Positions 7,534 through 15,144 of a DNA stretch of 39,008 nucleotides are shown here, piece after piece. Source of the DNA: Dehalococcoidales bacterium (lineage in GTDB: Bacteria > Chloroflexota > Dehalococcoidia > Dehalococcoidales > Fen-1064); contig JAQTOJ010000001.1 in assembly GCA_028713395.1 (NCBI GenBank), positions 1-39,008 on the forward strand. Direction: 5' to 3'. The notes under the pieces were generated by a model. The model was not told the DNA's origin and did no database searches. It worked only from the letters and a program-made list of their open reading frames with translations. How positions within the stretch are numbered: position 1 is the stretch's first letter; the number at the start of each line of letters is the position of its first letter. The translations under genes were made by a program, and so were the position numbers.

Positions 7534-7992
7534 TCATTTATTGATCCTAGCAAATTCGCCATGTAATTTTATTGCTTTGGCGTCATAAGCTTTTGCAGCT
7601 TCAATTAAATTTGCAAAAGTTCCAATGTAATATTTCTCTCCGTTGTATTTAATCTCCGCCCGCCATTTTTTTCTATACCAATAAACTCCTTTGTATCCTG
7701 ATTTATTAATCTTGCTTATTTTTCTGTTCCTTAAATTCTCGGCCTTAGTGCAAACCCTGAGATTAATCTTTCTATTATCGAGACCATTACCATTTATATG
7801 GTCTACTTGAATTCCTTTTTTAGCATTCAAGATAAGCCGGTGTAAGTAAATGGCCTTCTTGTTAACCGAAGCCCTAACGTAACGTATTTCTGTATTTTGG
7901 TTATATTGTATTATCCAGCGATAACCTTCGACTTTGTTCAAATCTTCTTCGTCTATGAAGACAGATTGATTTTTAATTTTAATTACGGCCAT
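7534..7992 (-). CDS. HNH homing endonuclease with AP2-type DNA-binding domain
   Basis: VDHINGNGLDNRKINLRVCTKAENLRN is an HNH motif. YKGVYWYRKKWRAEIKYNGEKYYIGTFANLIEAAKAYDAKAIKLHGEFA is an AP2 domain. ATG at 7992. Confidence 0.85.
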   Translation of the reverse strand: MAVIKIKNQSVFIDEEDLNKVEGYRWIIQYNQNTEIRYVRASVNKKAIYLHRLILNAKKGIQVDHINGNGLDNRKINLRVCTKAENLRNRKISKINKSGYKGVYWYRKKWRAEIKYNGEKYYIGTFANLIEAAKAYDAKAIKLHGEFARINK

Positions 7993-8207
7993 TTGCAATC
8001 CTTCTTTCCCCAGGGGTTACCTGTTTTAACGATGTTCAAGACTTCTTCGGCTGCGAGTCTACACATGGGCGTACCTTTGTAGCTGTGCTTACCAGCAATG
8101 CCTTTTAGTGTTTTAGTAGATGGACATTCTTTGCATGTCGGCGGGTATTCCATCTTTTTATTTTCCACTGCCAACAAATAACAACAGATCTTGTGGACGG
8201 TTTTCAT
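7983..8207 (-). CDS. small Cys-containing protein; possibly the 5' exon of a split gene
   Basis: 74-aa ORF. Its ATG overlaps the TGA of the preceding mini-ORF (ATGA). Confidence 0.4.
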   Translation of the reverse strand: MKTVHKICCYLLAVENKKMEYPPTCKECPSTKTLKGIAGKHSYKGTPMCRLAAEEVLNIVKTGNPWGKKDCKWP

Positions 8208-10634: not shown

Positions 10635-10835
10635 TCAATCTCGTTTAGGTTTTCGACTTCTTCCATTACTAAGGTAGTCATGTAGTTTCTGTACGGTCAG
10701 TAATCCTGGGTTTGAAATACGTCCTTTAAAGAACTTAAAAAGCCAGGATGGGCTAACGCCTGCCTCGTAGGCTATTTGGTCACGAGGCCGCTCGTCTTTG
10801 AGCAATAAATCCAGTGTTTCTTGATGTAGGTCCAT
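10635..10835 (-). CDS. HTH transcriptional regulator (Cro/CI-like)
   Basis: DQIAYEAGVSPSWLFKFFKGR is a helix-turn-helix. It is the first gene of the leftward operon, next to the divergent control region. Confidence 0.6.
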   Translation of the reverse strand: MDLHQETLDLLLKDERPRDQIAYEAGVSPSWLFKFFKGRISNPGLLTVQKLHDYLSNGRSRKPKRD

Positions 10836-11310: not shown

Positions 11311-11567
11311 ATTTCAAAATCATGCGCAGATATCATTACGAAGATGTGAGAGAGGTATTCGGTATGATGCTCTTAGATAAAAAACTGTGGGACGCGATAG
11401 ACGAATGCGATTTAACAGAGATCGGGAGGATTGTTTATAAAAATCTCGACACACGGAAAAAAGAAATAGAAGAAGACGAAGGCTTCGATCCTGATGAAGC
11501 GGCACGAGATGTGATCCGAGAATCACAAGCAGCAGACATCCAACAACACAACAGGAAACTATCATGA
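11307..11567 (+). CDS. hypothetical protein (86 aa)
   Basis: ATGA-coupled ORF. Confidence 0.5.
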   Translation: MNFKIMRRYHYEDVREVFGMMLLDKKLWDAIDECDLTEIGRIVYKNLDTRKKEIEEDEGFDPDEAARDVIRESQAADIQQHNRKLS

Positions 11568-11854
11568 CCTTGAAATCAAAAGTGAGAGAAACCGGAAATC
11601 CATTTAGGATAGGAAAATATTATTTGATCCGAACGGTAACAATGATTATTACTGGGAAAGTGGTAAGAGTTTTACCTAGTGAAATTGTGTTAGAGGAAGG
11701 AGCATGGATTGCCGATACAGGTAGATTTTCAGATGCACTTAAATCCGCGAATTTTAATGAAGTTGAACCTTTTCCATCTGGAGAAGTAATCGTCGGACGT
11801 GGTTCTCTTATAGATGCCTGCATAATTTCTACTTCGCCTAGATCACAAAAATGA
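11564..11854 (+). CDS. hypothetical protein (96 aa)
   Basis: ATGA-coupled ORF. Confidence 0.5.
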   Translation: MTLKSKVRETGNPFRIGKYYLIRTVTMIITGKVVRVLPSEIVLEEGAWIADTGRFSDALKSANFNEVEPFPSGEVIVGRGSLIDACIISTSPRSQK

Positions 11855-12072
11855 ATCAGGCTATCTTAAAGTCTGGTTTTGATAAGAGCCGGAGCCGGAG
11901 CGGGAGCTGGAGCTGGAGCCGGAGCGGGAGCGGGAGCTGGAGCGGGAGCTGGAGCTGGAGCGGGAGCCGGAGCGGGAGCTGGAGCTGGAGCTGGAGCGGG
12001 AGCTGGAGCTGGAGCCGGAGCCGGAGCGGGAGCTGGAGCGGGAGCCGGAGCGGGAGCTGGAGCGTAATTTAA
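11851..12072 (+). CDS. repeat ORF read as Ser-Gly/Ser-Trp/Ser-Arg dipeptides (73 aa); the translated frame is uncertain
   Basis: ATG 11851 overlaps the upstream TGA (ATGA), so this frame is the translationally coupled one. The body is entirely the GGAGCN repeat. Confidence 0.35.
   Translation: MNQAILKSGFDKSRSRSGSWSWSRSGSGSWSGSWSWSGSRSGSWSWSWSGSWSWSRSRSGSWSGSRSGSWSVI
11885..12064. repeat. perfect hexanucleotide tandem repeat (GGAGCN)x29 plus one degenerate unit
   Basis: Counted by hand: 29 consecutive GGAGCN units at 11891-12064, with N = T 12 times, G 11 times, C 6 times and never A. The preceding unit is AGAGCC. Confidence 0.95.
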
Positions 12073-12100
12073 TCGTAAACTATCATAAGGAGACGTTGAC

Positions 12101-12184
12101 ATGGACTCGTTTACAGCAATTGTAGTGTTAACGGTATTTTCATTGGTGGTAGTAGCGGTTCTTTTATTAGCGAGTAAAGAATAA
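12101..12184 (+). CDS. 27-aa hydrophobic peptide
   Basis: Own translation: MDSFTAIVVLTVFSLVVVAVLLLASKE. SD AAGGAG lies 8 nt upstream. Confidence 0.4.
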   Translation: MDSFTAIVVLTVFSLVVVAVLLLASKE

Positions 12185-12348
12185 TGGAGAAACTTCTTTC
12201 GATTGCGTTCTTTGTGTTCTTTCTCTGCATGGTAGGGCTTTTGTTTTGGGTCATGGCTAAAAAAGATGTGGCCACGCCCGAAGAGAAGAAAGTCGAGTTC
12301 GACTACAACGCCTGGATGGTAAAGAAAACACCGGGGATTAAGAAATGA
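12184..12348 (+). CDS. 54-aa membrane protein
   Basis: Own translation: MEKLLSIAFFVFFLCMVGLLFWVMAKKD... TAATG and ATGA coupling on either side. Confidence 0.45.
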   Translation: MEKLLSIAFFVFFLCMVGLLFWVMAKKDVATPEEKKVEFDYNAWMVKKTPGIKK

Positions 12349-12557
12349 TCGACAAACAGAAAATAGAGGATGCAACTCTTAAAATGCACAACGCTCGTTG
12401 TAAATTAGAGGCGTTGTCGAGGATGAATGTTTACGGTCTTCTTCCAGAAGAAAGACTAAAAATAGATATTGAATACAACCTATCTAAAGCTGAAATGATA
12501 GAAGCCCAAAGAGAACTTGATATTGCTATCTCTTTCAGCGTCGGTGAACTTAAATGA
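12345..12557 (+). CDS. hypothetical coiled-coil protein (70 aa)
   Basis: Coupled ORF. Confidence 0.5.
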   Translation: MIDKQKIEDATLKMHNARCKLEALSRMNVYGLLPEERLKIDIEYNLSKAEMIEAQRELDIAISFSVGELK

Positions 12558-12739
12558 TCGACGAACACTGGCAGGATCAACAACGGCAGGATGATGAAGA
12601 AAGGCGGCGAGAAGTAGAAAGAGTATTGCTAGATTATTCTTATGGACTCACTAGCAAAAAGGGATTCGATATACTTTGCCGTGAATGTGGAATAAATAAA
12701 CCTGAACTTAGAGACCGATTTATCAAGGATAACACATGA
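12554..12739 (+). CDS. hypothetical protein (61 aa)
   Basis: Coupled ORF. Confidence 0.5.
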   Translation: MIDEHWQDQQRQDDEERRREVERVLLDYSYGLTSKKGFDILCRECGINKPELRDRFIKDNT

Positions 12740-13623
12740 ATGAATTAGTGAAGCAAGACTCACCGCTATCTGTCTCTGACGTAAAGGGGCAGATTCAAGT
12801 GATTCAGCATGTCATGCGCGAGGCGATGGTGAAAGGCACCCATTTTGGGATCATTCCAGGGTGTGGAGACAAGCCTACACTGCTTAAGCCGGGTGCTGAA
12901 AAGCTCTGCCTTACCTTTAGGCTTTCCCCTACCTACAAGGTAGAGAAAACCGACTTGCCTAACGGGCACCGTGAATACGATGTTCTATGCACGCTTACCC
13001 ATATCCCAAGCGATAAAGTCTTCGGGCAAGGGGTAGGTCTTTGTTCAACGATGGAGTCTAAATTCCGCTATCGGAAAGCTGAGAGAAAGTGTCCTGCTTG
13101 CTCAAACACGTCAATTATCAAGGGGAAGAAAGAGTACGGCGGCGGTTGGTTATGTTTCGCCAAAAAAGGGGGATGTGGCGCTAAATTTAAAGACGGAGAC
13201 AAGTCCATCGAGGATCAAGACGTAGGACGTTCGGAAAATCCTGATTTAGCTGATTCTTACAACACCATCCTAAAGATGGCGAAGAAGCGTGCTCACGTAG
13301 ACGCCGTGATAACAGCTTTAGCCGCAAGCGATATCTTTGCTCAAGACTTAGAGGACTTAACACCATCTGAAGACCCATATGCTAAGTATCAGGACTTAAT
13401 AAACCTCATAAAAGAAAGCATCAGTACCGAGGATTACTACAGCGGATCAAAGGCGTGGTTTGAGTCTAGCGACGATACCAAAACGCATCTGTGGGTAGCA
13501 CCAACAAAAGGTGGGCCGTTCACTACCGAAGAATGCAAAGTTATTAAAAGTACCGCTTGGCGGGAAGCATACTACGGTAAAACTTCAGATGTGGGAGACG
13601 GTATGCAATACGAGAATTTATGA
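12736..13623 (+). CDS. putative single-strand annealing/recombination protein (ERF-like) with an inserted 4-Cys zinc ribbon
   Basis: KPTLLKPGAEKL and NTILKMAKKRAHVDAVI...SDIFAQD resemble the conserved blocks of ERF-type annealases. CPAC...CFAKKGGC forms the ribbon. The assignment is from memory of the family only. Confidence 0.35.
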   Translation: MNELVKQDSPLSVSDVKGQIQVIQHVMREAMVKGTHFGIIPGCGDKPTLLKPGAEKLCLTFRLSPTYKVEKTDLPNGHREYDVLCTLTHIPSDKVFGQGVGLCSTMESKFRYRKAERKCPACSNTSIIKGKKEYGGGWLCFAKKGGCGAKFKDGDKSIEDQDVGRSENPDLADSYNTILKMAKKRAHVDAVITALAASDIFAQDLEDLTPSEDPYAKYQDLINLIKESISTEDYYSGSKAWFESSDDTKTHLWVAPTKGGPFTTEECKVIKSTAWREAYYGKTSDVGDGMQYENL

Positions 13624-13855: not shown

Positions 13856-14566
13856 ATGGAAATGCGAACAAGAGAAACAGATAAGTATAGTAGGGAGTTT
13901 TGGGAGTTTTTTGGGAAGTGGGTTGCGGTATTTTTATTTCTTACGTTGTTGGCTTTTTTCTGTCAACAAAGTAAAGCGCACGATGAAAAACAAAGTGACT
14001 GGCCGGTGAGGTTGTTTATTGAGTCGGGTATATCGCAGTATGACCAGTTACCCGATGGAAGTTTGTGGCAACATTCCTTCGCAGGGTATTACACCAAACA
14101 AGACATGAAGTCATGGTCTTTCAGAGTTGGCGGCGAATATAAAAACTTCCGCTTCGGATATTTCGACCTTGGTCAGTACCATACTGCCGCAGAAGCTTCA
14201 AACAATGAAGCCTGTACTATTGAGAGAAGGGATAAATCATGTCCGGGAGGCACACAATGGATTTACACATCCGGGGGGATAAGAGGAATTACGCTAACCT
14301 ATAATTTCAAGGTCTTTGACCTCATTAGAGCCGAAATTGGCCCTACCATGAACAGGCAAGATTTTACACTATTACCATCCGGTGTTCACGAAGTTGTTTA
14401 TGGTTACGGATATATGTTCGGTATCGGAGTAGATGGAAAGAATGTATACGCCGCTTTGCAAAGGTACTCGACAAACATCGGCGGAAGTATTACTGCAAAT
14501 GATGGCTTGAACCTTCCTTCCGGTGTTGGGAGTGCATGGGCCTTTGTCATTGGGCACAAATTCTAA
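13856..14566 (+). CDS. outer-membrane beta-barrel protein candidate (moron)
   Basis: N-terminal hydrophobic signal/anchor, alternating hydrophobic beta-strand patterns, aromatic-rich sequence, and a C-terminal ...WAFVIGHKF ending in Phe. Confidence 0.45.
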   Translation: MEMRTRETDKYSREFWEFFGKWVAVFLFLTLLAFFCQQSKAHDEKQSDWPVRLFIESGISQYDQLPDGSLWQHSFAGYYTKQDMKSWSFRVGGEYKNFRFGYFDLGQYHTAAEASNNEACTIERRDKSCPGGTQWIYTSGGIRGITLTYNFKVFDLIRAEIGPTMNRQDFTLLPSGVHEVVYGYGYMFGIGVDGKNVYAALQRYSTNIGGSITANDGLNLPSGVGSAWAFVIGHKF

Positions 14567-15144
14567 TGGCCAACTGTATAGCGCCAGGCTGCACGGAAAA
14601 AATACATGCAAGGTCTTTTTGCAATAAACATCTACATAGATTTAACAGGGGGAAATCTTTAACAGAAAAAAGTGTTCGCGAAAAAACACTTAAAGAAAGA
14701 TTTTTTGATAAAGTTCATAAACGTGGTGAGAATGATTGTTGGGAGTGGAAAGCTAATAAAAATCATGGTTACGGGCAATTTAGAATTAACGTAAAACAGA
14801 TTAAAGCTCACCGTGTTAGTTATGAGCTGCATCACGGAAAAATTGATCCTACGTTATGTGTACTGCATCATTGCGATAACCGTGGATGCGTTAACCCTAA
14901 ACACCTATATCAAGGAACCTATCAAGATAATACAGACGATAGAATGAGACGTGGGAGACATGGTTTCGGAGTTTGCCCAGGTGAAAAACATGGAATGGCG
15001 AAGCTTACTGAAGACAAGGTAAGGAAAATTAGGGGAATGTACATACCTAGAAAAATAACACAGCTCATGTTGTCCAAAAAATTTGGTGTATCTGGAAGCT
15101 TAATTCACAATATCGTAACCAGAAAAGCCTGGAATCACATATGA
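14566..15144 (+). CDS. HNH homing endonuclease (free-standing)
   Basis: GYGQFRINVKQIKAHRVSYELHHGKI....VLHHCDNRGCVNPKHLYQGTYQDN is an HNH_3-type motif. There is a C-terminal HTH-like tail. ATG 14566 is in TAATG overlap. Confidence 0.75.
   Translation: MANCIAPGCTEKIHARSFCNKHLHRFNRGKSLTEKSVREKTLKERFFDKVHKRGENDCWEWKANKNHGYGQFRINVKQIKAHRVSYELHHGKIDPTLCVLHHCDNRGCVNPKHLYQGTYQDNTDDRMRRGRHGFGVCPGEKHGMAKLTEDKVRKIRGMYIPRKITQLMLSKKFGVSGSLIHNIVTRKAWNHI

Follow-up and report, generated by a model that had tools for sequence, protein, structure and literature searches.

The subject of this analysis is a perfect GGAGCN hexanucleotide repeat in contig JAQTOJ010000001.1. The stretch examined, referred to here as the window, is 39,008 nucleotides (nt) long and is recorded at NCBI as a contig of a Dehalococcoidales metagenome-assembled genome. 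It is a tailed-phage genome in which genes for a large terminase, a major head protein, and a tail fibre are present. Comparison with related phage sequences shows that the repeat is the coding body of a predicted 73-aa protein, read in the frame that is coupled to the preceding gene through an ATGA overlap. The same comparison shows that the two genes form a cassette that is widespread and unannotated in phages: a partner of ~90-115 aa with a predicted Sm/LSm-like fold is followed, usually across an ATGA junction, by a gene made of a conserved head and a repeat array. Taken together, the conclusions on frame and family are held with high confidence.

Sequence count and Tandem Repeats Finder (TRF) established an unbroken block of 29 GGAGCN units that spans 174 nt (11891-12064, itself not assigned to a strand). 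Its variable base is T in 12 units, G in 11, and C in 6, and is never A. TRF returned the tract as the sole tandem array of the window (period 6, 29.7 copies), and its G+C content is 76% compared with 42% for the window. A perfect array of 29 units cannot have arisen by chance. No stop codon interrupts the tract in any of the six frames. On the plus strand it reads Ser-Arg/Ser-Gly/Ser-Trp, Gly-Ala, or Glu-x, and on the minus strand Ala-Pro, Leu-x, or Ser-x. The open reading frame (ORF) of the repeat protein (11851-12072, +; stop TAA at 12070-12072) encodes MNQAILKSGFDK followed by (Ser-X)30 and Ile. It begins at an ATGA overlap (11851-11854, +), in which the partner TGA and the repeat-gene ATG form a translational-coupling junction. 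The 12-residue N-terminal head MNQAILKSGFDK (11851-11886, +) is conserved in the family, and the in-frame array of 30 Ser-X dipeptides follows at 11887-12066 (+). Ser is encoded by AGC throughout, and X by TGG (12), GGG (10), CGG (7), and GTA (1). The resulting tail is strongly basic and has no hydrophobic segment; it consists of ~50% Ser, ~15% Trp, ~15% Arg, and ~17% Gly, compared with an average of 1.5% Trp in the genome. The original prediction had described the 29 perfect units, the missing A, the six open frames, and the ATGA-coupled ORF, and all of these were reproduced from the sequence.

Which frame is read had been considered ambiguous, and the ambiguity was gone once relatives were compared. 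Among 75 non-identical arrays with 1,706 dipeptides, every array read Ser-(Trp/Arg/Gly) in the coupled frame, despite DNA units as different as NGG-TCG, NGG-TCA, NGG-AGC, and NGG-TCT. The dominant Ser codon is uniform inside each array and was TCG in 45 arrays, TCA in 16, AGC in 10, TCT in 3, and TCC in 1. The closest relative (locus L113) has a partner that is 82% identical and head DNA that is almost identical, and it uses TCG for Ser where the window uses AGC, which amounts to three substitutions per unit. Such changes of the DNA unit alter the products of the other frames; the coupled Ser-(Trp/Arg/Gly) frame alone is maintained. The proposal that the tract encodes a dipeptide-repeat protein was thereby borne out. 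A product consisting of (Ala-Gly)n, in the frame opened by TTG at 11879, or of (Ala-Pro)n, from a minus-strand ORF at 11866-12375, is almost certainly not made. Both frames are open in the window, and the variable base is synonymous there. In TCG arrays, however, they turn into Gly-Arg and Arg-Pro, and in TCA arrays into Gly-His/Gln and a minus-strand reading with TGA stops. Neither the TTG start nor its context is conserved, and the minus-strand ORF runs antisense to three plus-strand genes. The supposed synonymy of the variable base therefore belongs to unconserved frames; in the coupled frame, the base is informative and non-synonymous.

The partner gene (11564-11854, +) encodes a 96-aa protein for which AlphaFold2 (AF2) modeling, Foldseek, and neighbourhood clustering indicate an Sm/LSm-like small beta-barrel that travels with the repeat gene. 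Its family comprises 244 confirmed IMG/VR loci, of which 79 were fetched, and 9 GTDB loci from several phyla. In a set of 5.8 billion proteins it accounts for at least 2,393 clusters, all unnamed or called hypothetical. Clustering at 50% identity gave 1,755 clusters. A Ser-X array adjoined the partner gene in 82 of 93 fetched loci under a strict criterion, mostly within the ORF immediately 3' of it. Neighbourhood clustering identified the partner alone as a recurrent neighbour of the repeat gene; because the surroundings are otherwise unconserved, the two genes were defined as a cassette. At 63 distinct partner-repeat junctions, the ATGA overlap was found 45 times, and 58 junctions lie within 10 nt. 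The head follows the consensus M-N-[AQ]-A-[IV]-L-R-[TA]-G-[FLY]-D-x. All 38 of 38 heads have Gly at position 9 (Gly9), and yet all four Gly codons are used for it (GGT 13, GGA 11, GGG 7, GGC 7), which argues for selection on the protein.

In GenBank, the pair was found only in MW202573.1, an uncultured phage from Manatee Spring. Both genes are annotated there as hypothetical, the repeat gene in the Ser-X frame and beside a divergent repressor. A protein search with the repeat ORF gave just four matches, all of the head-plus-Ser-X design, the low number being due to low-complexity filtering. Scans against Pfam, PHROG, PADLOC, and NCBIfam gave no match for either the repeat protein or the partner. 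Among long partner homologs, no fusion of the partner to a repeat or to an enzyme was found, only N-terminal extensions and one domain duplication (P0188, in which the whole domain is repeated in tandem). An N-terminal extension of ~15-20 residues with the consensus M-x-I-x-x-L-T-...-F (for example MKIEELTIGEAKKLANLF) is present in most partner homologs, including P0029, P0040, P0063, and the A2 consensus; the 96-aa partner of the window has none. Some loci carry the head-plus-array gene in many tandem copies, with about nine array blocks in L004 (3345-6271) and six in L100 (45-2626). These copies sit after a single partner gene and, in L100, before it as well. Two or more array blocks occur in ~15% of loci, and such multiple copies suggest that dosage or valency matters.

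An AF2 model of the partner built from 40 homologs reached a predicted local distance difference test (pLDDT) score of 85.5, with six strands and one helix. The model shows the strongly bent five-stranded antiparallel beta-barrel of ~70-90 residues that characterizes the Sm/LSm fold. Among the top 50 Foldseek matches in the PDB nearly all were Sm/LSm domains; LSm14 and Edc3 came first, and SmF, SmG, Lsm1-7, and archaeal SmAPs were also found. E-values lay between 3e-3 and 4e-2, and TM-scores relative to the target between 0.65 and 0.80. In the viral structure library BFVD, the partner matched uncharacterised phage proteins, some of them labelled DUF6948, "Sm-like domain," or "RNA binding protein." The motifs AAWIADTGRF and NEVEPFP, which are of surface type, are invariant in the partner.

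Complete arrays contain 4-43 dipeptides with a median of 27, and the in-frame length variation between relatives that had been anticipated was confirmed. At 98% partner nucleotide identity, arrays measured 40 and 26 residues and were 45% identical, which means that the order of X is unrelated, since Ser fills half of the positions. In ten pairs of loci, mostly one phage assembled from different samples, the DNA of the partner genes is identical, and the arrays are identical as well. Such agreement between independent assemblies means that the arrays are neither artefacts nor hypermutating. Point variants of X are rare, with 2.5% synonymous third-position and ~3.5% non-synonymous second-position changes. 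Together with the use of one Arg codon per array, this points to turnover by whole units of three founder types, and because whole 6-nt units are gained or lost, the frame is kept. Trp, Arg, and Gly are all present in each of the 61 arrays of at least 12 units, with mean fractions of 0.29, 0.32, and 0.33, and same-residue neighbours are slightly rarer than in shuffled arrays (z about -2.4 to -2.9 for Arg-Arg and Gly-Gly). Slippage alone would produce the reverse of this pattern, which argues that the mixed Trp/Arg/Gly composition is selected. The arrays share three properties with tandem-repeat-encoded amino-acid repeats (aaTRs): a 6-nt unit inside an ORF, the same amino-acid character from different DNA, and faster change than in the flanks. 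Hypermutation of the diversity-generating retroelement type was considered and rejected, as the window contains one array, arrays are stable across samples, and only three of the four bases occur at N. No template copy exists in the window, which has the single array; a reverse transcriptase was not specifically searched for.

The copy number of 29 comes from one short-read assembly only. A second (Logan) assembly of the same run (L114) is identical to the window up to the array and stops ~5 units into it. About 20 related contigs end within ~100-140 nt past the partner gene. Many metagenomic contigs (L003, L005, L025, L030, L042, L048, L049, L052, L058, L062, L065, L071, L072, L098, L101, and L114) break ~75-180 nt past it, inside the array. 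Contig ends of this kind would fit a tract that is itself, or in its length, an artefact of assembly. This is extremely unlikely, as 82 of 93 loci, which come from many samples and assemblers, have an array beside the partner, the ten partner-identical pairs share their arrays, and long k-mers are unique owing to the three unit variants. That the array exists is safe, and caution applies to the exact count of 29. The arrays are a recurrent breakpoint of short-read assemblers, and databases probably under-represent them.

The explanation that accounts best for the whole of these findings, and that we consider on balance probable, is a phage cassette, read in the coupled frame, in which the head of the repeat protein would attach to the Sm-like partner, leaving the tail to act on nucleic acid. 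The LSm domains of LSm14 (with 4E-T) and Edc3 (with Dcp2) dock short linear motifs. A complex of the two cassette proteins is proposed because of this docking of peptides by LSm14 and Edc3, the coupling of the genes, the conserved head, and the invariant partner motifs. The head would be a short docking motif for the partner barrel. The tail, highly basic, rich in Trp, and probably disordered, would have "stickers" in its Arg and Trp residues and "spacers" in its Ser and Gly residues; compositions in which aromatic residues and Arg are spaced by Ser and Gly favour multivalent RNA-linked assembly. The partner, possibly forming a ring, would display the tail, which in the early phase of infection could bind nucleic acid (RNA or DNA) or promote multivalent assembly. 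The design of RG-tailed Sm/LSm proteins would here be split over two chains, and the turnover of units would rapidly tune tail length and the order of Trp, Arg, and Gly. In a single-sequence AF2 prediction, the repeat region had pLDDT values of 40-64 with tentative beta-hairpins; the composition (Ser/Gly/Arg) favours disorder. As to the specific mechanism, analogy with RG-tailed Sm/LSm proteins and with the Borg Sm proteins described below favours multivalent binding of nucleic acid, or assembly, at an early stage of infection; this is a tentative proposal that could easily be wrong. In its most detailed form, many uncultured phages would encode a barrel that captures one or several heads and so builds, at that early stage, a multivalent particle that binds RNA or forms condensates; this is rather unlikely. 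In that case, the NGG codon box would mean that each first-base mutation or unit slippage yields a working tail, a low-complexity protein with rapid tuning built in.

Several points weigh against this explanation. An artificial concatenation of partner and repeat, modeled by AF2 without an alignment, reached a pLDDT of 40 and gave no information either way. Foldseek E-values for the partner are modest, on the order of 1e-3 to 1e-2. No Pfam LSM match was obtained in 40 partner members even at E<=1, and a PDB profile search returned no Sm protein. A V-G-R-G-x-I-I-D segment is conserved in the partner and resembles Sm2 by eye only. Since profiles do not detect Sm motifs, the partner, as modeled, is called Sm-like at the level of the fold and not a member of the Sm family. 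A few partner homologs (L073, L080) have no adjoining array. The variable residue X is encoded by an NGG codon in 92% of the 1,706 dipeptides, although other codons exist for Gly and Arg; in the genes of the window, GGG accounts for 17% of Gly codons and CGG for 9% of Arg codons.

The codon restriction bears directly on the alternative that the tract acts at the nucleotide level, as a Shine-Dalgarno sponge or CsrA-type GGA sponge, as a G-rich structure, or by presenting GG every six bases, with the protein reading secondary. Such a role would agree with the use of NGG whatever the codon usage of the host, with the 95% share of GGG among array Gly codons while head Gly uses four codons, and with synonymous variants of X that are no commoner than non-synonymous ones. 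Array Arg is 97% CGG or AGG, and the head uses ordinary codons. We consider the nucleotide-level alternative quite improbable. Because GGAG and GGA are missing from 65 of the 75 arrays, in which Ser is TCN, both sponge models fail. The DNA shared by all arrays is GG only, whereas Ser persists across codon families three substitutions apart, and the head peptide and ATGA coupling are conserved. RNA folding was no better than for shuffled sequences (z = -0.17), and an Rfam search gave one match far below the gathering score. The RNA role that had been suggested for the GGAG cores and GGA triplets thus finds no footing in the family. A decoy for the Cas9 protospacer adjacent motif, or a G-quadruplex, was also considered, and nothing speaks for either except the GG periodicity.

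Protein coding can explain the NGG codons as well. TGG is the sole Trp codon, NGA gives the stop TGA, and NGY gives Cys. In no codon box other than NGG does every first-base change yield Trp, Arg, or Gly. Our preferred reading is that the bias acts at the protein level and that units one step from TGG arise and persist, though why X so seldom departs from NGG is not fully explained. The original prediction had further proposed that N = A is absent because AGG codons are avoided. This is partly right. The array of the window is of the CGG type, and the missing A is no rule of the family: nearly every array keeps to a single Arg codon, CGG in 45 arrays and AGG in 21, with both in just 2 of 67. 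Flanking G+C is ~55% for TCG arrays and ~41% for TCA/TCT arrays. For AGG-dominant arrays it is 45.5%, compared with 52.9% for CGG-dominant ones (p = 0.004). As the choice of Arg codon, like that of the Ser codon, tracks genome G+C, the missing A in the window is a property of the lineage.

Two further alternatives accept the coding frame and assign the pair another function. In the first, the Trp/Arg product would be toxic, membrane-active, or polycationic, with the partner as its antidote or chaperone, in an arrangement resembling a toxin-antitoxin, exclusion, or lysis-timing system. Trp/Arg-rich peptides are classic membrane-active agents, the coupled gene pair is self-contained in a variable genomic context, and two tiny membrane ORFs lie directly downstream in the window. 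This is nevertheless improbable: half of the residues are Ser, a hydrophobic segment and a signal peptide are absent, the membrane ORFs are unconserved beside the cassette, PADLOC gave no match, and the Sm-like fold is no known antitoxin type. The second compares the protein to the precursor of a ribosomally synthesized and post-translationally modified peptide (RiPP), with a conserved leader, a hypervariable modified core, and a partner that recognizes the leader. The short conserved segment before a variable Ser-rich one, and the tandem precursor-like copies (up to nine blocks in L004 and six in L100), would suit such a precursor. Typical RiPP cores are far shorter than the 60-170 residues found here, no modifying enzyme is conserved nearby, and the partner matched no enzyme family. 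Its predicted all-beta Sm-like barrel is neither a PqqD-like winged helix nor an enzyme fold, and a RiPP-like function is accordingly judged very improbable.

In the window, the repeat sits in a short plus-strand block at ~10.9-15.7 kb that is divergent from a repressor-like gene (10635-10835, -) and that also encodes an HNH endonuclease and unannotated genes. The label "early operon" is reasonable, judging from gene layout only. A megablast search with 6 kb around the tract gave no match among GenBank phages. The two tiny membrane-protein ORFs directly downstream of the repeat gene occupy 12101-12348 (+). The first encodes 27 aa (MDSFTAIVVLTVFSLVVVAVLLLASKE) and is preceded by an AAGGAG ribosome-binding site; the second encodes 54 aa and overlaps the first at TAATG. 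Neither is kept beside the cassette in other phages. Further downstream, a gene at 12736-13623 (+) encodes a 295-aa protein with a four-Cys zinc-ribbon-like motif, whose sole match is PHROG 10048, of unknown function. IMG/VR contains 19 relatives of this protein (L006-L024), and a GGAGCN array, the sole array type checked, was found in none of them. PDB sequence and profile searches with the partner and with the two larger downstream genes returned nothing meaningful. The HNH endonuclease gene of the block (14536-15144, +) overlaps the preceding ORF by 31 nt, and a second one (7534-7998, -) encodes HNH_3 joined to an AP2 DNA-binding domain. In the left arm of the phage genome are a family-2 glycosyltransferase gene (1401-2009, -) and a weak match to PCO_ADO (cysteine dioxygenase-like; 938-1435, -), which may be auxiliary or modification genes. 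The contig ends (1-17 and 38998-39008) are G-rich and share the 11-mer CCCGCGTGGGG, without an exact terminal overlap. Related contigs contain further tandem repeats of coding type (L002 1-260; L004 222-566; L001 2170-2255), with a 15-nt unit present 17 times, a 27-nt unit 6 times, a 72-nt unit twice, and a 9-nt unit, GCAGCTCCG. This suggests that these phages are rich in tandem repeats in general.

With the comparison of relatives, an oddity of a single contig becomes a defined and very common phage gene pair that annotation has overlooked or called hypothetical. The partner has no Pfam, PHROG, or NCBIfam model, the repeat ORF is removed as low complexity, and short-read assemblies break in the array. 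The arrays are an unusually clean natural example of protein-level selection on low complexity, as grammar and mix persist through replacement of the DNA unit. Should the Sm-like partner and its Trp/Arg tail act jointly on RNA or assemble, the cassette would be a simple phage counterpart of eukaryotic Sm/LSm proteins with RG tails. Both proteins have fewer than 120 residues, which makes in vitro work easy. Literature searches for the peptide strings, DUF6948, and phage repeat or Sm-like disordered proteins found the family undescribed, as far as these searches reach. Coding tandem repeats that conserve amino-acid character, as in Borgs, and Sm proteins with low-complexity tails are already known. 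New are the phage cassette, a separate coupled tail with its own head, a Trp-rich Ser-X grammar, and codons that are nearly all NGG.

Known systems share some of these features. In the C9orf72 GGGGCC repeat, all frames are used aberrantly and yield pathological dipeptide products. The phage tract resembles it as a G-rich hexanucleotide with six open frames that can specify dipeptide polymers, including Arg-containing ones, and differs in having one maintained frame with a conserved start, head, and coupling. The alternation of Ser with Arg recalls RS domains, and the placing of aromatic residues and Arg between Ser and Gly spacers recalls sticker-spacer domains. Ser-Arg makes up about one third of the phage dipeptides; the combination of an RS domain with an RNA recognition motif (RRM) that defines SR proteins was not found. 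Unlike SR proteins, the phage chain has no RRM or folded domain and no Pfam match, and unlike RS and sticker-spacer domains, it uses Trp instead of Tyr and belongs to a bacterial virus, with no known kinase partner. Among eukaryotic Sm/LSm proteins, SmD1, SmD3, SmB, and LSm4 have RG-rich tails. The cassette likewise combines a small Sm-type barrel, with LSm14 and Edc3 as top structural matches, and a low-complexity Arg/Gly tail. The phage pair differs in that Sm motifs go undetected in the partner, a second protein carries the tail, and this tail follows a Ser-X grammar with abundant Trp.

Comparison with Borg elements shows both likeness and difference. Borgs encode aaTRs, and their Sm ribonucleoproteins carry disordered extensions encoded by tandem repeats (Schoelmerich et al. 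2023, PMC9879509). As in Borg aaTRs, the DNA repeats of the phage arrays are perfect or nearly so, have a unit divisible by three, lie within ORFs, and turn over rapidly. Homologs keep their amino-acid character with different DNA, and the proteins are small and consist mostly of repeat. As in the Borg Sm proteins, an Sm-fold protein is combined with a repeat-encoded tail. The phage system differs in that it belongs to a bacteriophage and that the repeat is a separate coupled polypeptide with its own head rather than a fused extension. Its composition is the opposite, as Borg aaTRs have nearly no Trp and no CGG, whereas phage arrays contain ~15% Trp and CGG is common (PMC9879509). Also in contrast to Borgs, where the repeats arise locus by locus, the members of a very large family all adhere to one dipeptide grammar.

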